Below, one piece after another: positions 45,421-63,227 of a stretch of DNA of 64,000 nucleotides. The position numbers were made by a program, and so were the translations under genes. The number at the start of each line of letters is the position of its first letter. Position 1 is the first letter of the stretch. Source of the stretch: Candidatus Limnocylindrales bacterium (lineage in GTDB: Bacteria > Chloroflexota > Limnocylindria > Limnocylindrales > CSP1-4); contig JBBQRX010000014.1 of NCBI GenBank assembly GCA_038214375.1, forward strand, positions 1,961-65,960. Direction: 5' to 3'. Below the pieces are notes generated by a model. It saw only the letters and a program-made list of their open reading frames with translations, was not told where the DNA came from and made no database searches.

Positions 45421-45460
45421 TGCGTCACCGACGCGGGCGCAGGGTAGCCGTGCGTCCCGG

Positions 45461-48330: not shown

Positions 48331-48460
48331 GGGTGACCTCCAGGGTGGCGGCGCCCGCGACGCGAGGAGCGACGCGAGCGACCAGCAGGCGTGGCCCGAG
48401 TATAGTCCCGACCCCCCGCGGCTCGATCGGCAGGGCTGAATCGGCGGCCCGATCGGCGGG

Positions 48461-49156
48461 TCACGCCTCGCGCGCCACCGTGCACGCGGAGACACCCGAC
48501 GCGCCTGCCGCGAGGAGCGCGTTCGCGCACGCGACGAGCGTCGCGCCGGTCGTGGCCACGTCGTCAATGAGCACGACCCAGCGTCCCGCCACGACCCGCC
48601 GCGACGCGTCCTGCACGCGAAAGGCGTCCGCAACGTTCTCGGCCCGGCGCTCGCGCCCGAGCTCGAACTGCGGTCGGGTCGCGCGATCACGCGCCAGCGC
48701 CACGACGGCCGAGAGCCGGAGATGCGCCGCGGCCGCGTCGGCGAGCAGGACCGCCTGGTCGTAGCCGCGCCGGCGCCGACGCTCCTCGTGGATCGGGACC
48801 GGGACCAGCATCTCGCCGCCCGCCCCCGCCTCGGCCCAGCGAGCCGCGATCGCAGAACCGAGCGGCTCCGCCAGCCGCCGCTCACCCGCGTACTTGAGCG
48901 CATGGAGCGCATTCCGCACGACGCCCGAAAACGGCGCGCACCACTCCAGCTGGAGCAGTGGCAACGGCACGGTCGACGGCAGCCCGAGCGGCACGCCCGG
49001 CGGCGTTCCCCGCCGAGCATCGAGCGCGGGCAGGCATTCCGCGCAGATGGGAGCGCCCTCCACGCCGCAGCCGGCGCAGACCGCCGGGAATGCCGCGTCG
49101 AGGAGGCGCGCGGCGACCCGGGATGGGGAGGCGAACAGGAACTTGGACGTGAGCAT
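48461..49156 (-). CDS. comF: ComF family protein (Zn finger + PRTase)
   Basis: FPAVCAGC...CAEC, LKY, VPVPIH...RRRGYDQA, LIDDVATTGAT. Confidence 0.9.
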   Translation of the reverse strand: MLTSKFLFASPSRVAARLLDAAFPAVCAGCGVEGAPICAECLPALDARRGTPPGVPLGLPSTVPLPLLQLEWCAPFSGVVRNALHALKYAGERRLAEPLGSAIAARWAEAGAGGEMLVPVPIHEERRRRRGYDQAVLLADAAAAHLRLSAVVALARDRATRPQFELGRERRAENVADAFRVQDASRRVVAGRWVVLIDDVATTGATLVACANALLAAGASGVSACTVAREA

Positions 49157-49259
49157 TTCCTGCGATGGTGACGTCGGGCGCTCACCGCGCGCGTATCGGC
49201 GCATGCACGGCGAGTTCATTCGCGCGGTCGGGCGGCATGGGCGACGGCTGCCCGTGCCC

Positions 49260-49447
49260 GATCCCGCCTTGCCGAGTCGATCATCGAACCTGCGACTGGC
49301 TCGGCGGGCCTCGGGAGGCCGTCTGGCGGACTCCGCTTCGTCCGGATTTCGCGTGGTAGTAGTGGTGGTGCTGGTATGTCGGTCCGCACCGGGTTCGACG
49401 GCGAGTCGCGGCCTTCGCCCGGGAGCCCTGAGCACGAATCGGGAACG
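49260..49447 (-). ncRNA. ssrS: Probable 6S RNA
   Basis: About 188 nt. The ends pair (GUUCCCG...CGGGAUC), inner GAACC/GGUUC and UGCG/CGCA pair, with an unpaired A/C-rich bubble (ACAUACCAGCACCACCACUACUACCA). The 3' arm CCCGCC...GCAGGUUC...CGGCA...GGGA resembles the 6S consensus as I recall it. Confidence 0.7.
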
Positions 49448-49483
49448 CATGGCGCGCCTGAGGCCCGCGCGGGCGTCGCGATG

Positions 49484-49574
49484 GGCGCTTACCAGCACCG
49501 GTAGTGCTGCCGAGTGCGGGAAGGGCGTCCCAGGTCGCTTATCAGCACCCGGAGTGCTGGCGCGGCCGGGAAGG
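49484..49574. repeat. Two direct repeats with exact 50-bp period, each holding the palindrome CAGCAC-N5-GTGCTG
   Basis: cgcttaccagcaccggtagtgctg...cgggaagg and cgcttatcagcacccggagtgctg...cgggaagg. Confidence 0.85.
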
Positions 49575-49645
49575 CAGATCCCGCGGCCCCGCCGCCGCCC
49601 CACGGCCCCGGCCCCACGCCCCACCGCCGCGGCCCCGCCCGCGTC

Positions 49646-50014
49646 CTACCCCACGGACTCCAGCAGCACCACGTCCCCCGGCCGCGTGCCCGTGGCGGCC
49701 GCGGTCCCGGCGGGCAGCTCCAGGCAGCCGTCTGCGCCGCGGGCGTAGAGAACGACCCCGATCCACGGTCGCAGGTCGGGGTGCACGGCCACCACGCGGC
49801 GGGTCCCGTCCGAGGCCGGACGGTCCAGGAAGACCGCGTCGATCGGGAAGCGCATGAAGAACATGTGGATGTTCGACGTACCGGTGAGCCAGAGCCCGCT
49901 GCCCGGGGGCAGCGACGGCCGGCCCATCAGGCCGCGGAAGCGCGACCCAAACGAATCGGCGATCTCGACCCCGCCGGCGAGCTCGGTGCCGCGCGTCAGG
50001 TTGAAGGCGCGCAC
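49646..50014 (-). CDS. DUF192 domain protein
   Basis: ADSFGSRFRGLMGR, IHMFFMRFPIDAVFLD, LELPAG. Confidence 0.9.
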   Translation of the reverse strand: MRAFNLTRGTELAGGVEIADSFGSRFRGLMGRPSLPPGSGLWLTGTSNIHMFFMRFPIDAVFLDRPASDGTRRVVAVHPDLRPWIGVVLYARGADGCLELPAGTAAATGTRPGDVVLLESVG

Positions 50015-50069
50015 AGGGGACGCATCCTCCGGCGGATGGGTCGGGTGGGCGTCGAAGCCGAGCGTGGCG

Positions 50070-51014
50070 CTAGAAGCCGGTACTCGCACCGCCGAGGTTC
50101 TTGATGATCAGGATAATCGCCGGACCCAGGATGACCACAAAGAGAGACGGGAAGATGCAGCCGACAAGCGGGAAGAGCATCTTGATCGGCGCCTTGGCCG
50201 CCATCTCCTCGGCGCGCTGGCGCCGCTCGATGCGCATCTGCTCGGACTGGACCTGGAGCACCTTACTGATCGAGACGCCCAGCTGCTCGGCCTGGATGAT
50301 CGCGCCGATGAAGTTCGTGAGCGGACCCACCTCGGTACGCGCGACGATGTCGCGCAGCGCGTCGCGGCGTGCCTTGCCCATCCGGACCTCGGCGAGCGCA
50401 CGCCGGAACTCGTCCGTCAACGGGCCGTTCATCTTCTCGACCACCTTGGCAAGAGCGGCATCGAACCCGAGGCCTGCCCGCACGCTGATCGTCAGCAGGT
50501 CCAGCGCGTCGGGGATCTGGAGGATGATCGCGTGCTGGCGTCCGCGCACGCGGCGACCCAGCCAGAACTCGGGGGCGATGTAGCCGAACACGATACCGAC
50601 GACGCCCCCGAACAGCCCGACCACGGGGCCGGTCACCAACAGGAAGACGAAGAGAAGGAAGAAGACGATCGCGAAGACGATCGACGACACGGCCTTGATC
50701 CCCAGCCAGTCGGCCACCCGCAGCTCGCCCGGGTTGCCGGCCATCGCGAGGCGTTTCTCCGTTGTCTGCGAGAACGACGCCGACGTGAAGCGGGAGACGC
50801 CACCCGACAGGCGGTTGGCCAGCGGCCGGAAGGTGCGGTCGAGGAACGGCTGCTGAAGCTCGATCTCCTCGAGATTCTTCGCCTGCATGGTCCCCAGCTG
50901 GGTCAGCCGGGCCTGCACGGGATCGACGGACGAACCGCCGGCCAGTCCAAGGGCGATGAGGAGGATCGCGAATGCCGCAGCTGCGGCGATGACAATTGGG
51001 AGCAGGGTGCCCAT
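50070..51014 (-). CDS. tadC: Tad pilus platform protein TadC
   Basis: PDALDLLTISVRAGLGFD, AEQLG, AEEMAAKAPIKMLFPL. Confidence 0.93.
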   Translation of the reverse strand: MGTLLPIVIAAAAAFAILLIALGLAGGSSVDPVQARLTQLGTMQAKNLEEIELQQPFLDRTFRPLANRLSGGVSRFTSASFSQTTEKRLAMAGNPGELRVADWLGIKAVSSIVFAIVFFLLFVFLLVTGPVVGLFGGVVGIVFGYIAPEFWLGRRVRGRQHAIILQIPDALDLLTISVRAGLGFDAALAKVVEKMNGPLTDEFRRALAEVRMGKARRDALRDIVARTEVGPLTNFIGAIIQAEQLGVSISKVLQVQSEQMRIERRQRAEEMAAKAPIKMLFPLVGCIFPSLFVVILGPAIILIIKNLGGASTGF

Positions 51015-51016
51015 GG

Positions 51017-52030
51017 CTAGACCTCGATGTCCACGATCTTGCGGATGATCATGAAGCCGATGAACATCATGGTCCCGCCGATCGCCATCAGGACGATTCC
51101 CGTCGGAATCCCAGCAATGCTGACGGCCGGGTCGAACATCGGCGTCATGAAGGTCGGCGCCAGGACGAACAGGGCGCCGACCAGGCCGATCGGCAGAAAC
51201 GCGACGACATAGCCGGAGATCCGCTGCTGCGCGGTGAGCGTGCGGATCTCGCCCTTGATCCGCACCCGCTCGCGGATCGTGTACGCGATCGAGTCGAGGA
51301 TCTCGGCCAGGTTGCCACCCACCTGGTACTGGATGGAGATCGCCGTCGCCATCAGGTCCAGGTCCTCCGACTTGACGCGCCGGACCATGTTCTCCAGCGC
51401 CTTCTCGAACGGGAGGCCCAGGTTGACCTCACGGATGACACGCTGGAACTCCGTGGAGATGGGCGGCCGCGACTCGCGGACCACCAGCTCGATGGCCTGG
51501 AGGAACGACGACCCCGCCCGGAGCGCGTTCGCGAGGAGCGTGATCGTATCCGGCAGCTGCTTGTTGAACTTGTTGAGCCGCCCGCCCTGGCGTCGCTTGA
51601 CGTAGGAGCGGGGCAGGAAGAAGCCGATCACGGCGCCAACCAGCAGCGCGATGGGGTTCTGCAGGGCCGGCATGAAGAAGCCGAAGATGAACATGAAGGC
51701 CGGGATCCCGACGATTGCGCCGGCCCAGATCAGGAGATACTCGCTGACCTTGAGCTTGAGGTCGGCGCGGGCGAGCTCCCGGGAAATGTTCGCCCCGAAG
51801 TCGCGCTGCTCGACGATCCGGTTGAGCGCCGCGATCGAGGTCGACTGCGCCAGCATGTCGCTGATCGGGCCCTGGCCGGTGGAGGCGGGCTTGGCCTGCT
51901 CCTGGCGCCCGGACGCGTAGCGCTCGAGGCGCGCGGTCACGCCGCCCCCGCGACCGGACGTGGCGATGCCGAGGGCGATGAAGAGGATCGCGAGCGCCGC
52001 CACGCCGGCGACGAGGATGGTAGGCGGCAT
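51017..52030 (-). CDS. tadB: Tad pilus platform protein TadB
   Basis: QLPDTITLLANALRAG, VGGNLAEIL, IRTLTAQ. Confidence 0.93.
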   Translation of the reverse strand: MPPTILVAGVAALAILFIALGIATSGRGGGVTARLERYASGRQEQAKPASTGQGPISDMLAQSTSIAALNRIVEQRDFGANISRELARADLKLKVSEYLLIWAGAIVGIPAFMFIFGFFMPALQNPIALLVGAVIGFFLPRSYVKRRQGGRLNKFNKQLPDTITLLANALRAGSSFLQAIELVVRESRPPISTEFQRVIREVNLGLPFEKALENMVRRVKSEDLDLMATAISIQYQVGGNLAEILDSIAYTIRERVRIKGEIRTLTAQQRISGYVVAFLPIGLVGALFVLAPTFMTPMFDPAVSIAGIPTGIVLMAIGGTMMFIGFMIIRKIVDIEV

Positions 52031-52053: not shown

Positions 52054-53478
52054 CTAGAAGACGAAGCCGAAGAGCCCGGGCGGCAGGTGGATCCCCTGCA
52101 CCTCGAACTTCTCGACGAACTTCGGGCGGATGCCCGTGGGCTTGAGCCGGCCCTGGATCTTGCCCTCGACGATCCCGGTCTGCTCGAAGACGAACACGTC
52201 TTGCATCACGATCACGTCACCTTCCATGCCCTGGACCTCGGTGATGTTCGTGATGCGGCGGGTGCCGTCCTTGAGGCGGGCCTGGTGGACGATCAGGTCC
52301 ACGGCAGACGAGACCTGCTCGCGGATCGCGCGGAGCGGAAGGTCCACGCCGGCCATCAGGACCATCGTCTCGAGCCGCGAGAGCATGTCGCGCGGGCTGT
52401 TCGCGTGGCCGGTGGACATCGAGCCGTCGTGGCCCGTGTTCATGGCCTGGAGCATGTCCAGCGCCTCGCCGGAACGGCACTCTCCCACGATGATCCGGTC
52501 GGGCCGCATCCGGAGGGCGTTGCGGACCAGCTCGCGGATCGGGATCTGGCCCTTGCCCTCGATGTTCGGCGGGCGGGACTCCAGCGTGACCACGTGCTCC
52601 TGGCGGAGCTGCAACTCGGCCGCGTCCTCGATCGTGATGATCCGCTCGTCGTTCGGGATGAACGAGGAGAGCACGTTGAGGGTCGTGGTCTTGCCGGAGC
52701 CGGTTCCGCCGGAGACGAAGATGTTGAGGCGAGCCTCCACGCAGGCCTTGAGGAAATCGAACATGTCCGGGGTCGCCGTCCCGAACCGGATCAGGTCGTC
52801 CACCGTGAACGGCGATGCCGCGAACTTCCGGATCGTGACCACCGGGCCCACCAGGGAGAGCGGCGGGATGATCGCGTTGACGCGCGAGCCGTCCGTCAGC
52901 CGCGCGTCGACCATCGGGCTCGACTCGTCGACCCGGCGGCCGATCGGGGCGATGATCCGGTCGATGATCCGCATGACGTGGTCGTCGTTCTGGAAGACGA
53001 CGTTCGTCAGCTCCAGCTTGCCGGAGCGCTCGATGTAGACCTGCCGCGGGCCGTTGACCATCACCTCGGTGATCGTCTCGTCGCGCAGGAGCGGCTCCAG
53101 CGGCCCCAGGCCGATGATCTCGTCGGTGATCTGCTCCAGCATCCGGACCCGCTCGGCGCGGGTGAGGGCAAGGCCCTCCTCGTCGATGACCTTGCCGAAG
53201 ATCTCCTCGATCTGGCGGCGCACCTCGACCTGGTTGGAGAGGTCGAGCTTGGGGTCCAGGTCCTGGATGACGCGCGACTGGATCCGGAACTTGACGTCGC
53301 GGAACGATTCTCGGACGGGCGCCGACGACATGAGGCGCTGGCTGCTGGGCGCGGCCAGAGGCGGCGGTGCGGGCTGTCCGCCACCCTGCCCGCCCGAGGG
53401 CGGGCCGGCGGGTGCGGTCGGCGTGACGGGTCCCGGTCCGCCGGGCCGCGCGCTCTCGATTCGCTTCAGCAGGGACAT
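52054..53478 (-). CDS. tadA: Tad pilus ATPase TadA/CpaF
   Basis: GLGPLEPLL, GGTGSGKTT, IEDAAEL, LRMRPDRIIVGECR, MNTGHDG. Confidence 0.96.
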   Translation of the reverse strand: MSLLKRIESARPGGPGPVTPTAPAGPPSGGQGGGQPAPPPLAAPSSQRLMSSAPVRESFRDVKFRIQSRVIQDLDPKLDLSNQVEVRRQIEEIFGKVIDEEGLALTRAERVRMLEQITDEIIGLGPLEPLLRDETITEVMVNGPRQVYIERSGKLELTNVVFQNDDHVMRIIDRIIAPIGRRVDESSPMVDARLTDGSRVNAIIPPLSLVGPVVTIRKFAASPFTVDDLIRFGTATPDMFDFLKACVEARLNIFVSGGTGSGKTTTLNVLSSFIPNDERIITIEDAAELQLRQEHVVTLESRPPNIEGKGQIPIRELVRNALRMRPDRIIVGECRSGEALDMLQAMNTGHDGSMSTGHANSPRDMLSRLETMVLMAGVDLPLRAIREQVSSAVDLIVHQARLKDGTRRITNITEVQGMEGDVIVMQDVFVFEQTGIVEGKIQGRLKPTGIRPKFVEKFEVQGIHLPPGLFGFVF

Positions 53479-53524: not shown

Positions 53525-54763
53525 CTAGCGCCATGCGAACAGCGACTTTCGCGGAGCCTGCCTGCGGGCCCCATCGCGTGCCTTCTCCGGTTCCCCGGTC
53601 AGCGACCGGGCCAGGCGAAGGATGTCCTGCGAGACCTGCGCCTCGCGATTGCTCAGGAAGAACGGTACTCCCCGGTTGAGCGCATACACAACACTCCGGC
53701 CGTCGCTGACGACCGTGTGATCCACCTTGCGGCCGATCGAGTGCTCCACGTCCGCGACCCGGATCCCCAGGGCGGAGTCGGCGCGGTTGAGGACCAGCTG
53801 CACCTTGTCCCCCGGGTAGCCCAGCTGGTCGGCCACCTCCAGGAAGAGCCGGAGGTTCTTGATGCTCGTGATCTCGAGCGTGAGGACCGTCAGGATCGTG
53901 TCGGCGATGTCGAGGATGGCCAGGGTCGCGTCGCTGAACGACGACGCGCAGTCCACCACGACGAGGTCGTAGCGGCCGCGGAGCACTTCCAGGACGCGCT
54001 TTGCCGACGACGGCGTCACCGTCTCGGCGAGCTCCGGGGATGGTGGCGCCAGGAGGACCTTGAGGCCCGAGGAATGCGTCATCAGGAACGTGTCGAGCGA
54101 TTCCGGCTCCCCGCCCGCCTCCAGCTCCGGCACCAGGTCGGCGATCGACTTGTTCTTCGGGTTGAGGTTGAGCAGCACGCCCACGTCGCCGAACTGGAAG
54201 GAGCCGTCAACCAGCGCGACGCGGCTGTTCGGCTCGGACGCGGCCGCGACAGCCACGTTCACCGCGATCGTCGTCCGGCCAACGCCGCCCTTCGGTGAGA
54301 AGACAGCCACCACGCGCCCCGGCTCGCGGGAGGCCGAGGCGCGCGCCTCGATCGCCGCCGGTGCGCCGTAGCGGACCCGCTTCTCGTGTTCCCGCGCGTG
54401 GACCTGTCGGATGGACGCCGTCAGCTCGTCGGAGCTGAACGGCTTGACCAGGAACTCGCGAGCCCCCGCCAGCATTGAGCGCCGGAGGTAGTCGGCCTCG
54501 CCCTGGACGGACATCATCACGATCGCGGTGGTCGGCACCTGTGCCGAGAGGAGCTCGGTCGCGGTGATCCCGTCCATGTCCGGCATGTTGATGTCCATCA
54601 GGACCACGTCCGGCAGGAGCGCGGCGGCCATTCGGAGCGCCTCGGCGCCGGACGAGGCCGCACCGACGACCTCGAAGTCCTTCTCGAAGCCCAGGAGCTT
54701 CGTCAGGTGATCGCGGGTCTCGGGGATGTCATCGACGATCAGGACGCGGATCTGGTCACTCAT
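53525..54763 (-). CDS. cpaE: CpaE/TadZ-like protein with N-terminal receiver domain
   Basis: REC: LIVDD, LMDINMP, VKPF; deviant Walker A SPKGGVGRTT. Confidence 0.9.
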   Translation of the reverse strand: MSDQIRVLIVDDIPETRDHLTKLLGFEKDFEVVGAASSGAEALRMAAALLPDVVLMDINMPDMDGITATELLSAQVPTTAIVMMSVQGEADYLRRSMLAGAREFLVKPFSSDELTASIRQVHAREHEKRVRYGAPAAIEARASASREPGRVVAVFSPKGGVGRTTIAVNVAVAAASEPNSRVALVDGSFQFGDVGVLLNLNPKNKSIADLVPELEAGGEPESLDTFLMTHSSGLKVLLAPPSPELAETVTPSSAKRVLEVLRGRYDLVVVDCASSFSDATLAILDIADTILTVLTLEITSIKNLRLFLEVADQLGYPGDKVQLVLNRADSALGIRVADVEHSIGRKVDHTVVSDGRSVVYALNRGVPFFLSNREAQVSQDILRLARSLTGEPEKARDGARRQAPRKSLFAWR

Positions 54764-54817
54764 GGGTTTCCGGTGCGAACGGTCAGGGGTGAGGGCGGCT
54801 CTGTCGGGCGCGAAGGG

Positions 54818-55723
54818 TCAGGGCTGCTCGGTCAGGATGATCTTCGGTGGGATGACGCCGTAGCTGTCCACCAGCTGGCGCAGCGTGATGCCCGTCGTCT
54901 TGACGGCCGGCGCGTCCTTGTCCTTCGGTGAGCGGAGGACCAGCGAGAGGTTGCCGTCCAGCTGGGTGAACCTAACGAGCTCGGCCTGCTGGGCGGTCAG
55001 CGCCAGGATCACGATCTGCGACTGGCCGTTCAAGGTGGTGGGCGTTTCCTGAGTCGTGCCGGTGCCTGCCGCCGGGGCCGGGGCGGCGCCCTGCTGCGCG
55101 GTGGGCGGTGGCAGGATCGTGCCCAGCACCAGGACGTTCTGGACCAGTACCTTGACGGTAGTGTTGTTGACCAGGGAGTCCTCGGTTTGGAAGTTGCGCA
55201 CCGTGACCGGCGGCTGGCCCTCCTTCGTTGGGGCCTTTTCGACGACGATCGGGTTCTTGTTGTCGGCCTCGGTCATCGAAAGCACGACGTCCACCCGGTC
55301 ACCGGGCTTGATCAGCGTACCGACGCCAGAGATCTGGTCCACCTGGACCGACTGCGCAAGACTCCCAGGGTCCAGGAGCTGAGAGATATCACCGAGCGAC
55401 GCTGTCGCGCTGAACGTGGAGGACGAGAGGTAGGCGCCCGACGTCACGTCCGTGCGGACGATCTTGCCGATGACCGCCTCGGGCAGGGCGAAGGAATCGC
55501 CCGGCTTGTCCGCCAGGGGGACATCCTTCGTCGTAACCATCGGCGCGGTGATGGTCGTCCCCAACGGGATGTCCTGGGCCGCCACCACGATCTTCGCGGT
55601 GGTCGGCGCGGCGGGCGTGCCGGTGCCCGAGCCGCCGTTTCCCGTGAGGAGGATGACCCCCACGAATGCGACCACGGCCAGGAACAGGCCGATGAGCAGG
55701 ATGAGCCGGTTGCTCCGCTTCAA
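54818..55723 (-). CDS. cpaB: Flp pilus assembly protein CpaB/RcpC
   Basis: N-terminal TM, SAF domain VVAAQDIPLGT, PGDRVDV, LSLVLR; TTG start after GGGGAG. Confidence 0.9.
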   Translation of the reverse strand: MKRSNRLILLIGLFLAVVAFVGVILLTGNGGSGTGTPAAPTTAKIVVAAQDIPLGTTITAPMVTTKDVPLADKPGDSFALPEAVIGKIVRTDVTSGAYLSSSTFSATASLGDISQLLDPGSLAQSVQVDQISGVGTLIKPGDRVDVVLSMTEADNKNPIVVEKAPTKEGQPPVTVRNFQTEDSLVNNTTVKVLVQNVLVLGTILPPPTAQQGAAPAPAAGTGTTQETPTTLNGQSQIVILALTAQQAELVRFTQLDGNLSLVLRSPKDKDAPAVKTTGITLRQLVDSYGVIPPKIILTEQP

Positions 55724-55915
55724 GGTTCGTTCTCCCCAGGCTGCCGGGTGACAGGTGGCACCACTCTAGCATCGTGTGAGAGCGGCGCGACTATACGATT
55801 GGGCCATGACCATTGGGAGGATTTGGCCAGAAATCGAGTGGGAACGCCGAGAAGCGGCCCGGTCGCGATCGGGCGCCGGACGCCATCCAGCCGGTCACGG
55901 CTTCGGGCGCTGGAG

Positions 55916-55955
55916 GAAAGAAAGAAGGGCCGCCGGGTCAACCCGGCGGCCCTTC
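55916..55955 (-). terminator. Intrinsic terminator after the major Flp pilin
   Basis: Perfect 14-bp stem GAAGGGCCGCCGGG / CCCGGCGGCCCTTC followed by TTTCTTT on the minus strand. Confidence 0.88.
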
Positions 55956-55967
55956 AGTACTTGGGTG

Positions 55968-56141
55968 CTAGATCGAGTTCCCGACGGTGCTCAGGACCGT
56001 GTTGATCTTGCCACCGAGGAAGAGAAGGGCGACGATCGCGAGGATCGCGATAAGGGCGAGGATCAGCGCGTACTCGGCGAGTCCCTGGCCCTCCTCGTCG
56101 CGGACGAAGAGCGACGTGATGAGTGCGTACAGACGAGTCAT
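55968..56141 (-). CDS. Flp family type IVb pilin (probable major pilin)
   Basis: MTRLYALITSLFVRDEEG|QGLAEYALILALIA; GGAGGTG SD. Confidence 0.93.
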   Translation of the reverse strand: MTRLYALITSLFVRDEEGQGLAEYALILALIAILAIVALLFLGGKINTVLSTVGNSI

Positions 56142-56273
56142 TGTGTTGTTCACCTCCTTCCCTGACGAAGGTCCCCCGTCACGACGGGGGCCGCGGTCCC
56201 GATGGACCGAACGCGTGGGACGCGCAATTCGACGATAGGTGCCGAACCCGGCGTTGCCTCACAGCGCTCCCGA

Positions 56274-56302
56274 AGGCTAGGTACCGGTGAGAGGCTTGTC
56301 AA
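56274..56302 (-). promoter_or_regulatory. Sigma70 promoter TTGACA-N17-TAGCCT for the major pilin
   Basis: Consensus -35 and 17-nt spacer. Confidence 0.7.
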
Positions 56303-56354
56303 GGGTTCCAATAGTCCTGTGGTGCGCTCCGGCGCCGGCCAGCTCACACATTGG

Positions 56355-56525
56355 TCAGACCGAATTCCCTAGCGTGCTCAGCATGGTATTGATTCTGCCG
56401 CCCATGAACAGCAGGGCGACAATCGCGAGAATGGCGATGAGGGCGAGGATCAGGGCGTACTCAGCGAGTCCCTGCCCCTCTTCGTCGAAGTGCAGACGTG
56501 CCCAGACCGAGCTGACAAGTGCCAT
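56355..56525 (-). CDS. Flp family pilin 2 (56 aa)
   Basis: Below the ORF-track cutoff; manual translation MALVSSVWARLHFDEEG|QGLAEYALILALIAILAIVALLFMGGRINTMLSTLGNSV; GGGGAG SD. Confidence 0.9.
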   Translation of the reverse strand: MALVSSVWARLHFDEEGQGLAEYALILALIAILAIVALLFMGGRINTMLSTLGNSV

Positions 56526-56618
56526 AGGCTCGACTCCCCGGATGATTGCGCCCCAGATATTCGAGGCAGCGCGAGTCTAGGGTCACGGCGCACAGAAGGC
56601 CAATAGGACCTTCGTACC

Positions 56619-56783
56619 TCACCTGGCCTTGTCGATCTGCGTGCCGATCAGGCTCAATGCCCACGCAAGCTGCGGCCCGAAGAAGAGCAGCGCGATCACC
56701 GCGATGACCACGACCAGGGCGAGAATCAGGCCGTACTCCACCAGCCCCTGGCCCGCTGCCGCGACCGACGCAGGCCGGTTCAT
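56619..56783 (-). CDS. Flp family pilin 3 (54 aa, divergent)
   Basis: Manual translation MNRPASVAAAG|QGLVEYGLILALVVVIAVIALLFFGPQ...; ATGA overlap with the upstream kinase stop. Confidence 0.85.
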   Translation of the reverse strand: MNRPASVAAAGQGLVEYGLILALVVVIAVIALLFFGPQLAWALSLIGTQIDKAR

Positions 56784-57958
56784 CCCGCGTCGGCGGGGGT
56801 CGCCTCGTCGGCCGGCGGCGGGATCGGGACCACGACCTCGATCGTCTGCCCGTCGGCGGCCACGCCAACGCGGCCCCCGAGCGCCGTTGCGCGATCCGTG
56901 ATCTCGCGTCGGACGTCGGCCGGCACACCACCGGCGGCGACGACGGCCGCGCGGTCGGCACGCCGCGACTCGATCATCGACACGAGGGCAGCCGGCACAT
57001 CCGCGCCGGGCGCGGGCAGCACCGGCTCCTCGTCACGCGCGGCGAGGTGCGCGCGAACCGTGGCGGTCAGCTCGGCCGCGCCCCAGAAGAGCGTGACGGT
57101 GACGCGCTCCGGGTGCGTGGCAGCGAGGGCCGTGACCGACTCGTCCACGATCCGGAAGACGCCGCTCTCCAGCTCCATCGGGAGGCGCCGGTCCGGGCCC
57201 AGCGAGTCGAACTCCACGGGAACCTGGGCGCGCCGGCTGCGGTCGCGGGCGACACGGCGGAGCGTCGGCACGAGGCCCAGGTCGTCGAGCACCATCGGTC
57301 GAACGTCGAAGATGAACGTCTTGGTCGTGTCGAGCGTCCGCTGGACCATGCCGACCAGCTCGCGAACCTCGGCCCGGGCGGCCTCCGGATCGCGGTCGAT
57401 CAGCCGCTCCACGATCTGCGCCTGGAGGACGATGTTCGTCAGGCTCTGGGCTGGGCCGTCGTGCATCGCCCGCGAGATGTCGCGTCGGAGGTCCTCCAGC
57501 GCCGACTGGAGCATCCGGTGCGTGGTGGCCGAGGTGGCACCCGACCACGGGGCCGCGGGCGCACCGGGCCCGACCGATGCCGGCGTCGATCGTGGCGCAT
57601 CGAGGCCCGCCAGCTCCGCCACCTCGCGCCGCAGGTTCGCGAGGCCGTCGCGATAGCGCGCCAGCACCTTGTGCTTGCCCTGGAGGACCTCGATCTGGGC
57701 ATCCATCAGGGCGAACCGCTTGGTGAGCGTGACCAGCTGGGCGTTCTGTTCGGCGATCTCGGCCCGGTCGGCGCCGGGCGCCGCGAGGAGCTCCGCGACC
57801 TTTTCAGCCAGGTGGGCGCGCTTCTGTTCGTGGCGGCCCGCTTCGCTTCGCGCCTGCCCGGCCAGGAGCTCGATCTCGGACAGCTCGCGTTCCAGGCCCG
57901 CGACCTCGCGGTCGAGGGAGGAGGCGAGGTCGGCGGGGGTACGTTCGGGCTCCGTCAT
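56780..57958 (-). CDS. DegS-like HisKA_3 protein with degenerate ATPase domain (pseudokinase / possible phosphotransferase)
   Basis: Coiled-coil N-terminus; H-box SRAMHDGPAQSLTN and FDVRPMVLDDLGL are intact. N-box reads ESVTALAATH; no DxGxG or GxGL. Confidence 0.8.
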   Translation of the reverse strand: MTEPERTPADLASSLDREVAGLERELSEIELLAGQARSEAGRHEQKRAHLAEKVAELLAAPGADRAEIAEQNAQLVTLTKRFALMDAQIEVLQGKHKVLARYRDGLANLRREVAELAGLDAPRSTPASVGPGAPAAPWSGATSATTHRMLQSALEDLRRDISRAMHDGPAQSLTNIVLQAQIVERLIDRDPEAARAEVRELVGMVQRTLDTTKTFIFDVRPMVLDDLGLVPTLRRVARDRSRRAQVPVEFDSLGPDRRLPMELESGVFRIVDESVTALAATHPERVTVTLFWGAAELTATVRAHLAARDEEPVLPAPGADVPAALVSMIESRRADRAAVVAAGGVPADVRREITDRATALGGRVGVAADGQTIEVVVPIPPPADEATPADAG

Positions 57959-57969
57959 TCGGTTCGGTG

Positions 57970-58707
57970 TCAGTCCTCCGGCATCCGGATCCAGCCCTGG
58001 CGCATGGCATAGACCACGGCCTGGGTCCGGTCGTTCACGGAGAGCTTCCGGAGGATCGAGCTCATGTGGTTCTTGACGGTCTGCTCGCTGATCGACAGCG
58101 CGTAGGCGACCTGTTTGTTGGTCATGCCCTGGGCGATGTTGTCCAGGATCTCCACCTCGCGCGGGGAGAGCGGGGCGAAGATCGGGGCGGCCTCCTGGCC
58201 GTAGACGGCCAGCTCGCGGAACTCTTTGAGCACGCGGCTCGCGACGGCCGGCTTCGCGAAGACCTTGTCGTTGATCAGGAACTCGCCGTCGCTCACCCGC
58301 CGGATGATCGTCACGAGGTCGTCCGGGCCGACGTTCTTCAGGATGAACGCGGCTGCCCCGGCACGGATCGCCTGGAAGAGGGCCTCCTCGTCCTCGTCGG
58401 ACGCGAGGAGGATGATCCCGGTCGCGGGGAGGTCGCGCTTGATTCGTTGGGTCGCCTCGATCCCGCCCGGGGCCGGGAGCGAAAGGTCCATCAGGATGAT
58501 CGCGGGATCGGTCTCTAGCGCGACGTCATGGGCCGTGCGACCGTCCTCGGCCTCGCCCACGATCTCGAAGTCGGGCTCCCGCTCCAGGATCGACCGCATG
58601 CCCACGCGGACGAGGGCGTGGTCGTCGACGATCAGGATCCGGATCCGTTCGCCGTCCGCTCGCCGGTCGGGGCCGCCCCGCCGACGGTCGGGTCCACCAT
58701 ACGACAT
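57970..58707 (-). CDS. NarL/DegU-family response regulator
   Basis: LIVDDHALVR, LMDLSLP, FILK; LuxR HTH LSPREVEIL...TVKNHMSSILRKL. Confidence 0.95.
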   Translation of the reverse strand: MSYGGPDRRRGGPDRRADGERIRILIVDDHALVRVGMRSILEREPDFEIVGEAEDGRTAHDVALETDPAIILMDLSLPAPGGIEATQRIKRDLPATGIILLASDEDEEALFQAIRAGAAAFILKNVGPDDLVTIIRRVSDGEFLINDKVFAKPAVASRVLKEFRELAVYGQEAAPIFAPLSPREVEILDNIAQGMTNKQVAYALSISEQTVKNHMSSILRKLSVNDRTQAVVYAMRQGWIRMPED

Positions 58708-58714
58708 CGTCTGC

Positions 58715-59782
58715 CTACCTCCTGACGGTCCCGATGGGAATCGCGAGCCGGAGCACGGTGCCCTCGGACGGCCGCGATCGGACGTCGAAGTGCGCGCCGA
58801 TCAACTCCGCCCGGTCGCGCATGAACTGGAGCCCAAAGCTGCGGCGGCCCCGCGCGCTGACGGAGTCGATGTCGAAGCCGCGCCCGTCATCGGTCACCTC
58901 GAGCGTCCACCCGTCGTCCTCGAGGCGGGTGCTCACCCGAACAACCGTTGCCTCGGCGTGGCGCCGCACGTTCTGGAGCGCCTCCTGCAGGACGCGGAGG
59001 ACGACGACCTGGCTCTCGTCGGAGAGTTCGCTTGCGGGCGCGGCGAGGTCCGTCTCGATCGTGGCGCCGGTCAGCGCGCGGGTGGTCGCAACGGCGTCCT
59101 CGATGGATCCATCCAGCCCGAGCTCGGCCAGGAGCGGCGGCCGCAGCTGGGTGATGAAGGCGCGCACGTCGTCCAGCTGGCGGCGCAGCCGCTCGCGCAG
59201 GAAGCGCACCTCCGTGCGCACCGTGCCAGGGTCGGTGTCGAGGACCCGCTCGATGTAGTCGGCCTGGAAGATCGCGTTGACCAGCGCCTGTGCCGGGCCG
59301 TCATGGACCTCCTGGGCAAGGCGGACGCGCTCCGCCTCGCGGGCCTCGACGAGCCGCATCCGCAGGTCGTCAGGGAGGTCCGGCGCCGAAAGGTCGCCCT
59401 GGAGGCTGGCATCGCCGCGCTCGAGAAACAGCCACGTGCGCTCCAGGCCACGGACTGCGAGCTCCAGCCGCGACAGCTCGGTCGCGCGCGCGCCGAGGTC
59501 GCTGGCCCCGAGGGCGACGGTCCGCCGAAGCTCGCCGGGGTGGACCGGCTCTCCGCTGGCCATTCCATTGCCCATCTCCGGTTCGAGCGCGTCGAGCTCC
59601 TCGCGGTCCAGCTCGTCGTGCTCCGCGTGCCACACGCCGAGGTCCGCGTGGTACGCCTCGCGGTATTGCTCGGTCAGCGCGCGGAGGGTGTTGGCGGCAT
59701 AACCGAGCGCGGACTTGGCCTCCGCGTACACGCTGTCGAAGCGGCCCGTCCCGGCGTCCCCGATCCTGGTCTCGGCGCTCAT
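58715..59782 (-). CDS. Soluble DegS-like sensor histidine kinase
   Basis: EVHDGPAQ, QEALQNVRRHA, DDGRGFD, FGLQFMRDRA; no TM; ATG 9 nt after TATACT. Confidence 0.92.
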   Translation of the reverse strand: MSAETRIGDAGTGRFDSVYAEAKSALGYAANTLRALTEQYREAYHADLGVWHAEHDELDREELDALEPEMGNGMASGEPVHPGELRRTVALGASDLGARATELSRLELAVRGLERTWLFLERGDASLQGDLSAPDLPDDLRMRLVEAREAERVRLAQEVHDGPAQALVNAIFQADYIERVLDTDPGTVRTEVRFLRERLRRQLDDVRAFITQLRPPLLAELGLDGSIEDAVATTRALTGATIETDLAAPASELSDESQVVVLRVLQEALQNVRRHAEATVVRVSTRLEDDGWTLEVTDDGRGFDIDSVSARGRRSFGLQFMRDRAELIGAHFDVRSRPSEGTVLRLAIPIGTVRR

Positions 59783-59805
59783 CTGCGGGCCAGTATAGGG
59801 GCCGC

Positions 59806-61449
59806 TCACGGGCAGGCGACCCGGTAGACGGCGAAGTCGGCGGCGCTTGTTGCCGTGCCTGGCGCCGGCGGGAGCGCGACCGGTGCCAGGCAATGGGCAT
59901 CGGGATCGGTGGCGAGGCGCGCTGGCCAGCCTCCGTGGGTCCCGTCGAGGACCACGTAGCGCGCCCCGAACGTCCGGGCGATCTCGAGCACGCTGGAAAC
60001 GGGCTCGTCGGGGAGTGCGAGCGCGCGGACCCGGTTCGCCTCGGCCACCCAGATCGGGTGGTTGGCGATCACGGGGACGGATGGGTCCAGGCGGTCACCG
60101 AGCGCGGCAAACCGGGCCGTCAGCGCGGAGTAGCGTGCCTCGGTTCCGGCCGCATTGCTGCCGTACGAGGGAATCCCGAGCCCCAGGAAGAGGAGCGCAC
60201 CCGCGCCCGCGAAGAGCGGGCCCAGCCAGGCGACCGGATGCGTCCAGCCGCGATGCCGGCCCACCCATGCCAGACCCGCGTCGAGCCCGGCGAGGCCGCT
60301 CACGATGAGCAGGACCTGGGCCGGCGCCGAGGCGTGGAGGTAGGTGCCCCAGGTGGTCTGGACGGGGAAAACGAGCGTCGTGATCGTGAAGGTGGCAATG
60401 GACGAGATCACGAGCAGCCGGAGCGACCGGCTTCGAACGACCCACGGCAGCCCAGCCAGGCCGACAGCCGCCACCGGCATCCCGGGGAGCAGGAGGACGT
60501 TCACCAAGTTGTGCGAGAAGCCGGTCACTCGATCGTCGAGCCATGCTGCCGGGCCAGCGGCCAGGTACGCGGCCAGCGCGGCCGGCTCCTTCCACGCGAA
60601 GATCTCGAAGCCGGAGATCGCCCAGGCGTTTGTGATGGCCTGGCCGGGCAGCGGGCTGCCGAAGACGAGCCAGTTGCGAGCCAGCCACGGCGCGACGACG
60701 ACGACGGCGACCACGGCGGGCACCAGGACAAGCCGCGCCCGCTCAGCGCGGCTCGGTGGGCCCTGCCACCACGCGAGGGCCGCCCAGCCCATCGCGACCC
60801 AGAGCGCCTCGTTTCGTGTCAGGGCGGCGAGCCCCAGAGCCAGCCCCAGGCCAATGAGGCGCGGGTCGCGAACTCGGGCGCCGCGCGGCTCGCGGAGGAG
60901 GCGTGTGGCCAGGAGACAGGCCGCGAGCACGGTCACCCCGAACGGAATCGTCGAGTCGAGCAGCGCCGACGGCAACACCAGGGGCAGAGCCACCGCGCTC
61001 ACGAGCCCGCAGCCCAGCGCGAGTGTCCGGGCCCGCTCGCGCGGAAGGCCACGTTCCGCCGCGAGATCCGCGCCGATCCGCCATGCGAGGACGGGGATGA
61101 CCGCCCCGAGCAGAACCGGCACGGCGAGGGTTGCCGCGTAGCTTGTCGAGCCGAGAAGCAGCATCGGAAAAGCCGCGAGGAGCGTCGGAAGCGGCAGCCA
61201 GATCTCGAACGCCGGGCGTGGGAAGAAGAGCCCGAAGCTCCCCGTCAGCGGATCGCGTGCCGGCGTGACATAGCTCCAGAGCGCGTCGGACACGAGCCCG
61301 TGGCCCTCGACCAGGTTGCGGGCGATACCCCAGTAGTAGGTCGCGTCCTCCGGGATGGGGAACGGGACCTGAGCCGCGGCCCACGCGCGAACGAGCAGAG
61401 CGACCAGGAAGATTCCGATGGCGCTTGACCGCGTCTCGATGCGACTCAC
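59806..61449 (-). CDS. GT-C fold membrane glycosyltransferase
   Basis: LLVR...PEDATYYWGIARNLVEGHG, WLPLP, LAALTRNE; multi-TM. Start 61449 or 61470. Confidence 0.78.
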   Translation of the reverse strand: MSRIETRSSAIGIFLVALLVRAWAAAQVPFPIPEDATYYWGIARNLVEGHGLVSDALWSYVTPARDPLTGSFGLFFPRPAFEIWLPLPTLLAAFPMLLLGSTSYAATLAVPVLLGAVIPVLAWRIGADLAAERGLPRERARTLALGCGLVSAVALPLVLPSALLDSTIPFGVTVLAACLLATRLLREPRGARVRDPRLIGLGLALGLAALTRNEALWVAMGWAALAWWQGPPSRAERARLVLVPAVVAVVVVAPWLARNWLVFGSPLPGQAITNAWAISGFEIFAWKEPAALAAYLAAGPAAWLDDRVTGFSHNLVNVLLLPGMPVAAVGLAGLPWVVRSRSLRLLVISSIATFTITTLVFPVQTTWGTYLHASAPAQVLLIVSGLAGLDAGLAWVGRHRGWTHPVAWLGPLFAGAGALLFLGLGIPSYGSNAAGTEARYSALTARFAALGDRLDPSVPVIANHPIWVAEANRVRALALPDEPVSSVLEIARTFGARYVVLDGTHGGWPARLATDPDAHCLAPVALPPAPGTATSAADFAVYRVACP

Positions 61450-61453
61450 GGCG

Positions 61454-63127
61454 TTACGGCGACCGGGCATGGTCTGCCGTCGCGCACCGCCTATCGTCCG
61501 GTGCAACGCAGACCGGGTAGACGGCAAGGTCGACAGCTCCGGAAGGTTGGGTCGGACCGCCTGCAACGCTCACGGCAGAGCGAGATGCGACCGGCGACCC
61601 GATCCAGGCTGGTCGAGCCGCGCCGTCGAGGATCGGGGCAATCGCGGGTACCGCACTGGCGCGATCCAGGATCAGCCACCGGATCTGGTAGGCGCCGGCG
61701 ACCTGCTCGATCGTGGACAGTGGGTCGTTCACCAGGACCACGCCGCCACGGCCGCTCCAGTACCGCGTCCCCGACGCATCGATGGACATCACCCGGTCGG
61801 TGATCGGCGCGCCAGCAGCGTCGAGCGCTCCCGCCGCGAACCTGAGGTCGTCGGCCTTATGGGTCCACCCGGCGTGTATCACGAGAGTGGCGGCGGCGGC
61901 GGCGATAACCGCAAACGCCACCGTCGCGCCCGAGAAGAATCGCATCGCCTGGTCAGCGTTCCAGCGCTGCCGGCGGCGGGCTATCCACCCGATGCAGGCA
62001 GCCAGCCCTTCCAGCACCAGCACATACGTGTGCGGTGCCAGGCCGATCGCGGAGTGGATGAAGGTGCCGCCCGAGACGTGGACCGCGAAGACAAGGGCAT
62101 TGAAGGCGACCAGGATTCCGGCGTAGACGAACGCGGGTGAGAAGTCCGTCGAGTGCCGGCGACACCAGCCGCCGATCAGCATGAAGGGAACCAGGATGAC
62201 GCCGCCCACCAGAACGGCGTAGATCGTGAGGGCCTGAAGCAGGCCGTCGATCCGGGTGGCGACCAGCGGCCCCAACCCCTGGCCCAAGAAATGATCAACG
62301 GTGGCCGGGATCGTGAGGCTGTTCCACTCGGAGAACGTGCGAATGAGCAGCACCTTGCCGGTGGCCGAGGACGGCGACAGGCTGCTGAAGACGGCAAGCT
62401 GGCGGGCGAACCAGGGGGCCGCGACCGCGAGGAAGAGCCCCGCGCAGGCGACAGCCGCCCAGAGCGGGATCGCGGTTTGCCTGGAGCCCCTGCTCCGCCA
62501 CGCTCGCCAGCGATCAGCGAAGAATAGGAATCCTAGGGCGACACCTACCAGGATCCCGTCAGAGCGGGCCAACGTCGCAAGGGCCACCAGCGCCCCAGAC
62601 ATCGCGAAGCTTTGGCCGTGGCCCCGGAGGCCACGCGCGCCCAGCCACAGCGCGCCCACAACCAGCGGTCCGTAGAGCCCGAAGCTGTCGGGCTGGGCGA
62701 GATACGGCGTCGTGAGGACCGGGACCGCCGTCAGGAAGCCGGCTCCGAGTGCCACGGTCTCGCTCGCGCCGGCGTCGCGGGCCAGCCCCCACGCCATCGG
62801 GGCCGTGAGCGCGCCCAGCAGGATGAAGGGTAGGGACGACGCCAGGGTCGTCGGGCTCAGGAGCCAGATGAAGGGGACCTGGACGATCGAGGCGAGGGGC
62901 ATCCAGTGCGCGTTGCTCGGCACCGGCAGGACCGGGATGGCCGGCATCTTTCCGCCCACTTCCACGAAGATCCAGATGAAGTCGACGCTGAACCCGTGGC
63001 CGGCGGCGACGCGCCGCGCGACGTCCACGTAGTAGTACGAGTCCGGGTACCCGGGATCCGGGAAGTGGAGGTACACGAGCGCCCGGACCAGGACGGCGAG
63101 CACGAACAGCAGGAGTGGCTTCCGCAC
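61454..63127 (-). CDS. GT-C fold membrane glycosyltransferase (paralog of its neighbour)
   Basis: VLVR...YPDSYYYVDVARRVAAGHG, HWMPL, LATLARSDG; multi-TM. Confidence 0.78.
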   Translation of the reverse strand: MRKPLLLFVLAVLVRALVYLHFPDPGYPDSYYYVDVARRVAAGHGFSVDFIWIFVEVGGKMPAIPVLPVPSNAHWMPLASIVQVPFIWLLSPTTLASSLPFILLGALTAPMAWGLARDAGASETVALGAGFLTAVPVLTTPYLAQPDSFGLYGPLVVGALWLGARGLRGHGQSFAMSGALVALATLARSDGILVGVALGFLFFADRWRAWRSRGSRQTAIPLWAAVACAGLFLAVAAPWFARQLAVFSSLSPSSATGKVLLIRTFSEWNSLTIPATVDHFLGQGLGPLVATRIDGLLQALTIYAVLVGGVILVPFMLIGGWCRRHSTDFSPAFVYAGILVAFNALVFAVHVSGGTFIHSAIGLAPHTYVLVLEGLAACIGWIARRRQRWNADQAMRFFSGATVAFAVIAAAAATLVIHAGWTHKADDLRFAAGALDAAGAPITDRVMSIDASGTRYWSGRGGVVLVNDPLSTIEQVAGAYQIRWLILDRASAVPAIAPILDGAARPAWIGSPVASRSAVSVAGGPTQPSGAVDLAVYPVCVAPDDRRCATADHARSP

Positions 63128-63227
63128 GATGGTGCACGGTAGCACCGCGCGAGGCGCCGTCCGGCGGTACGGATGGACTACTGGAGGGTGCGGCCCCGCG
63201 TGAGGGAGCAACGGGCGCGCCGTCGGC

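Follow-up and report, generated by a model that had tools for sequence, protein, structure and literature searches.

Introduction

Few proteins are known to carry the phospho-His helix of a histidine kinase while being incapable of using ATP; the hand-picked examples are Spo0B, ChpT and some pseudokinases. Spo0B and ChpT have a degenerate ATP domain, and the helix of the HisKA_3 family has two ATP-independent activities of its own, phosphotransfer via its His and dephosphorylation of a receiver via an Asp-x3-Gln motif. Here we describe HK2, a HisKA_3 protein encoded between a response regulator gene and the first pilin gene of a Tad/Flp (type IVc) pilus cluster, in a 64,000-nt stretch of DNA from Candidatus Limnocylindrales bacterium (assembly GCA_038214375.1, contig JBBQRX010000014.1, forward-strand positions 1,961-65,960; this whole stretch is called the window below). 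Judged by its own sequence and those of its orthologues, HK2 is a real and conserved HisKA_3 paralogue of the nearby kinase HK1, devoid of an ATP site and endowed with an invariant His.

Several pseudokinases of two-component networks belong elsewhere: DivL, which has Tyr in place of the His, RetS and PsmA are HisKA-type or hybrid proteins, whereas HK2 is a HisKA_3 protein. Among pilus systems, PprAB of Pseudomonas aeruginosa is a two-component system beside flp/tad, and the structural literature on TadZ is said to describe TadZ/CpaE as having an atypical N-terminal receiver domain. Table 6 of PMC5231405 lists both Spo0B and ChpT as 'bears a DHp domain'. According to the preprint 10.1101/2025.06.23.661182, the His is unneeded for HisKA_3 phosphatase activity and unavoidable for phosphotransfer, and it is lacking in only 0.3% of HisKA_3 domains, a figure that rests on the supplements of that report. 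The abstract of PMC9430884 calls DivL a pseudo-histidine kinase. The text of PMC12963549 describes PsmA as being without the His, with a variable residue at the site and a function independent of it. For Pectobacterium, the text of PMC3767616 describes a two-component system beside flp/tad (ECA0785/0786), the regulator of which is required for flp/tad transcription; for Streptomyces coelicolor, the text of PMC4428217 states that the two AbrC kinases each undergo autophosphorylation with ATP in vitro.

Results

HK2 and its kinase paralogue HK1

The genes of interest lie on the minus strand in the order HK1, RR (the response regulator), HK2, Flp1-3, CpaB, a receiver-bearing CpaE, CpaF, TadB, TadC and DUF192, as read from open reading frames (ORFs) and Pfam matches (Table 1). 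A preliminary description of this locus, made from the sequence, had reported two coiled-coil HisKA_3 proteins without transmembrane segments on either side of a NarL-type regulator, the first with complete H, N, G1 and G2 boxes, the second with its DHp domain kept and its N-box Asn, DxGxG and GxGL lost, and with a stop codon overlapping the start of a Flp pilin gene. The reading frames, Pfam matches and alignments bear out this picture at the place given, and for HK2 the coiled coil finds its counterpart in the structural model described below.

The translation of HK1 contains the motifs HDGPAQ, QEALQNVRRHA, DDGRGF and FGL. Neither protein has a transmembrane segment, the top Kyte-Doolittle 19-residue mean being 0.64 in HK1 and 1.08 in HK2. 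HK2 possesses the PF07730 domain and the His (His166) of a bona fide HisKA_3 kinase but not the HATPase_c motifs: Pfam yields HisKA_3 and a weak FCD match only, and no HATPase_c match at E <= 0.1. The two proteins can be aligned through the DHp domain and into the first helix of the domain that follows, at 34% identity (115 aa, E 1e-17). An alignment of HK2 orthologues with HK1 shows Ala or Gly in place of the N-box Asn in HK2; DxGxG is gone, and so is the Gly-Leu of the G2 box. The best explanation of these motifs is that HK1 would be the sole member of the HK1-RR-HK2 triad able to use ATP.

Conservation, age and distribution of HK2

Motifs were scored in 41 HK2 and 40 HK1 sequences of the class Limnocylindria, which come from the window, from 20 f1 loci and from 20 f3/f5 loci (the families are numbered f1 to f5, the window's genome being one of f1); one locus, L050, contributed no HK1, since the best 'HK1' match there is HK2 itself. 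His166, Asp167 (+1) and Gln171 (+5) are present in 41/41 HK2 sequences. By contrast, the N-box Asn and the first Asp of DxGxG occur in none of the 41, and the last Gly of DxGxG in a single one, as against 40/40 for each of these residues in HK1, where every scored motif residue is kept. The G2 Gly of HK2 is replaced in 21/21 f1 sequences and falls in an alignment gap in 20/20 from f3/f5, and at the site of the ATP lid the f1 proteins have an insert of about 30 to 65 residues with a helix of its own. Likewise, HATPase_c is recognised by Pfam (alignment A2, E <= 0.01) in 0/22 HK2 rows versus 6/6 HK1 rows. Two checks suggested by the preliminary description, for intact G-boxes and for loss of the His among HK2 orthologues, thus turned up neither.

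The f3/f5 proteins are only 27-34% identical to the HK2 of the window, and in a tree rooted on four other HisKA_3 kinases from the window's genome all 41 HK2 sequences stand on one side of a branch with SH-aLRT support of 97, the 40 HK1 sequences on another with support of 99. Against the closest HK2 orthologue, the ratio of non-synonymous to synonymous substitution rates (dN/dS) comes to 0.16 for the DHp domain and to 0.13 for the C-terminal domain, at dS values of 0.32-0.48 (0.48 for the C-terminal domain), and the HK2 reading frames are open at the 40 loci used. By these sequence measures HK2 is an old paralogue of HK1 that forms one clade. Because the loss is shared across families, the clades are separate and dN/dS is low, the absence of the ATP site appears old and maintained; on this evidence the state predates the split of f1 from f3/f5 and is kept by selection. 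Recent decay of the gene was considered and excluded, as the loss is common to the orthologues of two families, dN/dS is low and the frames are open.

At E <= 1e-20, HK2 was found in 90/151 sampled genomes of the class (a tally that includes four genomes flagged as unpublished, G067, G091, G106 and G112). By family, it is present in 41/44 f1 genomes (45 with the window's genome, which brings the total to 90), 47/49 f3 genomes and the only f5 genome (1/1), and in 0/50 of f4 and 0/6 of f2, the genomes of the last family being only about 1 Mb in size. The window's genome has one HK2, its next best match being HK1. A search of 5.8 billion proteins gave 4397 relatives at E <= 0.001 among 8000 candidates scored; the best 120 of these database relatives, 56-100% identical over near-full length, all have PF07730 alone. 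The best 80 of 548 confirmed genomic relatives all come from Chloroflexota metagenome-assembled genomes, many of them labelled Candidatus Limnocylindria or Limnocylindrales. Furthermore, a profile of the C-terminal domain matched 186 clusters at E <= 1e-10 among 1.84 billion representatives.

Predicted fold of HK2

An AlphaFold2 model of full-length HK2, built from 27 homologues, has a mean predicted local distance difference test score (pLDDT) of 76 and consists of a helical hairpin, a DHp helix pair and an alpha/beta domain. The hairpin helices (residues 8-59 and 65-117), which would correspond to the coiled coil reported earlier, reach a pLDDT of about 86-94 and contain a conserved RHEQKR block. 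Modelled alone on 20 orthologues, the C-terminal domain gave a pLDDT of 85 and a predicted template modelling score of 0.74; L039 was omitted from the underlying alignment (A3), the anchoring motif not having been found there.

In a Foldseek search the best match of the full model was DesK (E 5e-8). The model of the C-terminal domain matched the CA domains of VraS (4gt8, TMt 0.69) and DesK (3ehg, TMt 0.73), with RetS, CheA and others next in rank, and the pseudokinases DivL (4q20) and RetS (6dk7, 6dk8) are among the HK2 matches. A search of solved structures by sequence found only DesK, over the DHp domain only (E 0.004), with no match to the C-terminal domain. The analysis of the CA domain by profile and model that had been suggested for this protein therefore gives a double answer: there is no HATPase_c match, and the C-terminal domain is predicted to retain the GHKL/Bergerat-type fold of a kinase ATP domain without the N, G1 and G2 residues.

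Gene order across the families

Gene order was scored by tblastn with the window proteins. In f1, RR-HK2-Flp is found in 20/20 loci, with one to seven copies of Flp; HK1 lies upstream in 19/20, and CpaB-CpaE-CpaF-TadB follow in all 19 loci that reach that far. In f3/f5, HK1 and HK2 are neighbours in 20/20 loci, with RR between them in 19, and a flp/tad gene occurs within about 7 kb of the triad in 0/20; the tad cluster with its receiver-CpaE sits elsewhere in these genomes, about 460 kb off in G016. Conservation of the triad beside tad, which the preliminary description had put forward as a check, is therefore a property of f1 and fails in f3/f5, and we reject the triad as a Tad-specific device as a general rule.

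In the 5/5 f4 genomes examined, HK1-RR is followed, after a gap of 0.3-3.5 kb, by Flp-CpaB-CpaE-CpaF-TadB-TadC, and HK2 is missing at all five loci (tblastn E <= 1e-3). The f4 regulator is 72-75% identical to the RR of the window, and the f4 HK1 retains the His, the N-box Asn and the G-box Gly residues that were checked. HK1-RR beside flp/tad is thus a widespread arrangement; two families have HK2 in addition to this pair, and f1 alone has it between the regulator and the pilin genes. A wiring of the whole triad to the Tad pilus, with control of both pilin transcription and pilus assembly, finds no support in these observations, given HK1-RR-tad without HK2 at the f4 loci and a receiver-CpaE in 50/50 f4 genomes against HK2 in 0/50. 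What is left of it is a hypothesis that fits f1 and is no general property of the module.

One f1 genome, G074 (94% complete; L050/L085), has the two upstream membrane-protein genes UP1 and UP2 followed directly by RR-HK2-Flp, with no HK1; the best match to the window's HK1 in this genome (E 1.7e-21, 33% identity) covers the catalytic core only and is no orthologue. Since UP1-RR-HK2-Flp persists there without an HK1 orthologue, HK2 does not appear to depend on HK1.

Two further loci depart from the common order. In L064 (G130, f3) HK1 and HK2 are about 60 nt apart and the regulator gene between them is absent. In an f4 genome (G030; L173 6469-9368), regulator and Flp are 3.5 kb apart and have two ORFs of 479 aa and 383 aa, both unrelated, between them, so the spacing from HK1-RR to flp is variable.

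Receiver domains of RR and CpaE

In f1, RR keeps D28, D29, the acceptor D74 and K124 in 21/21 sequences and has the features of a NarL/FixJ-type regulator. The second receiver of the locus is that of CpaE, which had been described as having the acidic pair, the Asp and the Lys; these are D11, D12, D57 and K107, and together with S85 they recur throughout the 27 tblastn rows and show no variation among 30 aligned sequences of f1, f3 and f4. The CpaE receiver of the window is 60-69% identical to those of f3/f4, and by its residues looks able to be phosphorylated. CpaE was matched at E <= 1e-40 in 144/151 class genomes, including 50/50 of f4 (among the genomes tallied, G067, G087, G091, G096, G106 and G123 are flagged as unpublished), the matches listed being mostly full-length with the receiver and a few covering part of the protein. 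The unpublished genomes enter only the class tallies for HK2 and CpaE, and none of the loci compared here comes from them. We rejected the proposition that the CpaE receiver requires HK2, as all 50 f4 genomes have CpaE and none has HK2 (E <= 1e-20).

There are 23-51 receiver matches per genome, and the CpaE receiver is one candidate partner of HK2 among dozens. A complex of two HK2 chains (residues 143-392) with the CpaE receiver (residues 1-125) was predicted with a score of 0.39, the best of 3 controls scoring 0.00; the runs agree in >= 91% of contacts, with a partner pLDDT of >= 85. In calibration the mark was reached by 58/80 solved complexes and 2/110 mismatched pairs, although at scores <= 0.60 just 7 of the 80 solved complexes passed, along with both passing mismatches. 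A pass in that range is, by the same calibration, wrong more often than right unless the pairing was likely to begin with. It may also reflect likeness to solved DesK-DesR complexes, and the controls were unrelated proteins, not other receivers; the score lends the pairing weak, generic support, and we did not use it to pick the receiver of HK2. Nor did the neighbours of an f3 triad offer a hint of its output, since a Pfam scan of 10 ORFs around L057 returned only GT87, His_biosynth and Metallophos.

Composition of the locus

The features of the locus are collected in Table 1. HK1 and RR are separated by 7 nt and RR and HK2 by 11 nt, while HK2 and Flp1 overlap by 4 nt, the stop of one and the start of the other having ATGA in common. 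The start of HK1 is ambiguous between TTG 59893, GTG 59809 and ATG 59782, of which 59809 or 59782 is likelier; GTG 59809 overlaps the TGA stop of UP1 as GTGA.

Table 1. Positions of the features in the 64,000-nt window and the evidence for each
Feature	Position	Strand	Evidence
UP2, large membrane protein	61454-63211	-	PMT_2 glycosyltransferase match E 7.6e-07
UP1, membrane protein, 586 aa	59806..61566	-	ORF; without Pfam family
HK1, soluble HisKA_3 histidine kinase, H/N/G1/G2 complete	58715..59893 (longest ORF)	-	HisKA_3 1.6e-15, HATPase_c 1.3e-12
RR, NarL/FixJ-type response regulator	57970..58707	-	Response_reg 1.7e-23, GerE 1.3e-22
HK2, HisKA_3 protein, 392 aa	56780..57958	-	HisKA_3 6.2e-14, residues 158-224
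HK2 N-terminal helical hairpin, residues 8-117	57608..57937	-	AlphaFold2 helices 8-59, 65-117
HK2 DHp domain, residues 142-223; His166 codon 57461-57463	57290..57535	-	Pfam and alignment
HK2 C-terminal alpha/beta domain, residues 229-378	56825..57274	-	AlphaFold2 and Foldseek
Flp1, Flp-type prepilin, 54 aa	56619..56783	-	Weak Pfam, leader, positional orthologues
Flp2 pilin, 56 aa	56355..56525	-	Flp_Fap 3.5e-07
Flp3 pilin, 61 aa	55968..56153	-	Flp_Fap 2.5e-08
Terminator-like hairpin, then T-rich tract, just 3' of Flp3	55924..55955	-	14 pairs, 12 G-C
CpaB/RcpC	54818..55723	-	RcpC 5.4e-15, SAF 1.2e-11
CpaE/TadZ-type ParA-like ATPase, N-terminal receiver residues 7-118	53525..54763	-	Response_reg 5.5e-29, AAA_31 1.5e-13
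CpaF/TadA secretion ATPase	52054..53478	-	T2SSE 5.6e-65
TadB	51017-52030	-	T2SSF 8.4e-22
TadC	50070-51014	-	T2SSF 7.5e-22
DUF192 gene, end of tad cluster	49646..50089	-	DUF192 5.6e-18

By Pfam, the Tad/Flp set comprises Flp, CpaB, CpaE/TadZ, CpaF/TadA, TadB and TadC; a prepilin peptidase (TadV/CpaA) and the minor pilins TadE/F were not seen among the ORFs scanned at 41260-63992, a search that did not extend to the rest of the genome. Flp1 is under the Pfam cut-offs (Class_IIIsignal 20.6 bits, Flp_Fap 15.1 bits) and was called a pilin because it has a G-x4-EY-type leader and because several f1 loci have an orthologue immediately after HK2 as well. A 131-nt direct repeat with 82% identity (55970-56100 versus 56357-56487) is common to Flp2 and Flp3, which on that account are taken to stem from a gene duplication. 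The hairpin between Flp3 and CpaB includes a 15-nt perfect inverted repeat and, as a terminator-like element, would fit the usual layout in which pilin transcripts stop ahead of the assembly genes.

Upstream, a homologue of UP1 precedes HK1 (or, in L050, RR) in 19/20 f1 loci. The same 19 have a homologue of the PMT_2-like UP2, weaker relatives of which occur in 5/5 f4 and 16/20 f3/f5 loci; a role of UP1 and UP2 in glycosylation of pilin or envelope is a guess. A third PMT_2-like membrane glycosyltransferase gene (43837-45585, minus strand, E 1.7e-05) lies downstream of the tad cluster, and between the two are genes for a ribosome hibernation factor (within 47743-49185) and a ComF-like phosphoribosyltransferase (within 48461-49624). 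DUF192 ends the tad cluster after TadC in both f1 and f3 genomes (the window, L037, L040 and L082-L084); in the five f4 loci no DUF192 match was seen, and three of them have a receiver-like match after TadC.

Discussion

We propose, with belief and doubt about evenly matched, that HK2 works on a receiver without ATP, either as a partner of the Spo0B/ChpT kind or as a dedicated phosphatase. HK1, RR and HK2 would then form a three-protein NarL-type signalling module in which HK2 takes a phosphoryl group from a receiver onto its own His and passes it on or drains it, as Spo0B and ChpT do; the alternative within the same proposal, that HK2 would serve as a dedicated phosphatase, is possible. Since the His is invariant and is needed for phosphotransfer, a role in which HK2 is itself phosphorylated is favoured, and the sequences lean towards such phosphorylation, for which the donor could be a receiver, by reverse transfer, or HK1, acting in trans. 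An obligate HK1-HK2 pair is argued against by G074, which retains HK2 without HK1. In f1, the neighbouring RR is the obvious candidate receiver, and HK2 would presumably contact it, with transfer running in the direction just outlined. There the module heads the flp-tad cluster, so that how far RR is phosphorylated, and through RR pilin expression, would depend on the balance between HK1 and HK2; control of flp transcription by RR is suggested by adjacency, operon-like packing and the Pectobacterium precedent.

Several observations weigh against this proposal. That HK2 is unable to bind ATP is something we infer from motifs and a model only. HK1 carries the same Asp-x3-Gln, and next to it a separate phosphatase looks redundant. 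HK2 also appears dispensable in f4, where HK1-RR-tad exists without it in all five genomes examined. A promoter search gave 0 sigma-70-like sites, and a search for repeats that might serve as an operator for RR found only the Flp2/Flp3 duplication, the terminator hairpin and short G+C-rich matches. No RNA data set holding the locus stood among 22 sequencing runs listed. Furthermore, the helix that follows the His is 48% identical between HK1 and HK2 within f1 and 47% within f3, as against 58-63% for each paralogue between f1 and f3; with helices so distinct, HK1 and HK2 could serve different partners.

A further difficulty comes from the regulators of f3/f5. At the acceptor position they have Glu in 15/17 and Asp in 2/17, and the second acidic residue is lost in 17/17 (three of the 20 were unscored, two being incompletely extracted ORFs and L064 having no RR between HK1 and HK2). 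Between f1 and f3 the helix-turn-helix domain of RR is 89.5% identical and the receiver 41%; the f3/f5 regulator looks like a pseudo-receiver type, still flanked by an intact kinase. In these families the neighbouring RR is hardly a phosphorylated substrate. Since the regulators mostly have no acceptor Asp while the DHp residues of HK1 and HK2 are intact, another receiver is probably served there, and the true partner of HK2 may differ from RR.

Some of the same facts would suit a split or heterodimeric kinase, in which the ATP domain of HK1 phosphorylates His166 of HK2 and HK2 serves a receiver that HK1 does not, with a branched output; the two proteins might pair as a DHp heterodimer or between dimers. 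They are paralogous and alignable in their DHp domains, they are encoded together in 19/20 f1 and 20/20 f3/f5 loci, the His of HK2 is invariant, and each paralogue has a conserved post-His surface of its own. A kinase split into an ATP-binding and a His-carrying protein has reportedly been described in Mycobacterium tuberculosis (Rv0600c/Rv0601c). Yet the 94% complete G074 has RR-HK2-Flp without an HK1 orthologue, and the old, separate clades of the two proteins in the tree speak neither for nor against pairing. We consider this explanation unlikely.

Distinctly unlikely, in our view, is that HK2 acts as a non-catalytic pseudokinase regulator of the DivL, RetS or RocA kind, one that binds HK1 or RR and alters its activity or location without ever being phosphorylated. 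The structures of DivL and RetS among the Foldseek matches are in its favour, the long N-terminal hairpin could serve for docking, and the Glu at the acceptor position of most f3/f5 regulators would suit phosphorylation-independent binding. Against it stands the invariance of the His, the Asp at +1 and the Gln at +5 in 41/41 sequences over a deep divergence, whereas the described pseudokinases compared here have lost the His or do not need it, PsmA being without it according to the text of PMC12963549.

The most ambitious form of the phosphotransfer proposal would make HK2 the first HisKA_3-derived phosphotransferase, shuttling phosphoryl groups between RR and the receiver of CpaE and in this way switching pilin transcription in step with pilus assembly; HK2 would be charged in trans by HK1 or by a receiver through reverse transfer. 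We would call this improbable and leave it open because the CpaE receiver is invariant at its five active-site residues and better conserved than that of RR, and because the f3/f5 regulators have mostly lost their acceptor while HK1 and HK2 keep their catalytic residues. Finally, that HK2 is a working kinase with an unusual mode of ATP binding, or else a decaying gene, is scarcely credible: its C-terminal fold is retained and source databases label its relatives 'sensor histidine kinase DegS', but the N-box Asn and first DxGxG Asp are missing in 41/41, the last Gly remains in 1/41, the G2 Gly is gone and the lid gives way to an insert in f1, while open frames at 40 loci, presence in 90/151 genomes and dN/dS of 0.13-0.16 speak against decay.

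Where such proteins have so far been single cases, HK2 offers a whole conserved family of ATP-site-less His proteins that has arisen inside the HisKA_3 branch, and may be regarded as a natural experiment in the conversion of a kinase to a transferase or dedicated phosphatase. Non-kinases of this sort are concealed in databases by names of the 'sensor histidine kinase DegS' type. A link to pilus control is plausible in f1 and is not inherent in the HK1-RR-HK2 module. HK1, HK2, RR and the CpaE receiver are short, and the first two have no transmembrane segment, which makes them suited to work in vitro. The weight of these points is tempered by the fact that the concept is an established one, that the organisms are uncultured, and that the direction and target of transfer given here are putative.

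In the literature searched, subscription journals and supplements lying outside its scope, no paper contained both 'HisKA_3' and 'pseudokinase'; none joined Limnocylindria and pili, and broader searches gave no description of the HK2 family. In architecture, Spo0B and ChpT come closest, having a DHp-type bundle with a His and an alpha/beta domain that does not use ATP, as is predicted for HK2. Unlike them, HK2 is a clear HisKA_3 member with Asp-x3-Gln beside its His and a 120-residue N-terminal hairpin, has no Pfam match to the Spo0B or ChpT families at E <= 0.1, and adjoins a full kinase and a DNA-binding regulator instead of standing between a single-domain receiver and a regulator. With DivL, RetS, PsmA and RocA it shares the loss of part of the catalytic cycle by a protein still within a two-component network: its ATP motifs are lost, and its gene is placed between a regulator and a kinase partner in 39/40 loci. 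It differs from these pseudo-histidine kinases in that its His is kept in 41/41.

The combination of a soluble HisKA_3 kinase and a NarL-family regulator recalls DegS-DegU of Bacillus subtilis. HK2 itself was rejected as a DegS, as there is no match to the Pfam DegS N-terminal domain at E <= 0.1 and the best NCBIfam score is 49.9 bits against a cut-off of 408. The operon-like unit of two kinase genes and one regulator gene resembles AbrC1/AbrC2/AbrC3 of Streptomyces coelicolor, although HK2, in contrast to the AbrC kinases, is without the residues needed for autophosphorylation. Compared with the atypical receiver ascribed to TadZ, that of the window's CpaE is complete at its five active-site positions, none of which varies among 30 sequences of three families. 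The Pectobacterium system, with its OmpR-type regulator, and PprAB are ordinary two-protein systems beside flp/tad, whereas here an ATP-site-less paralogue of the kinase stands between the regulator and the first pilin.

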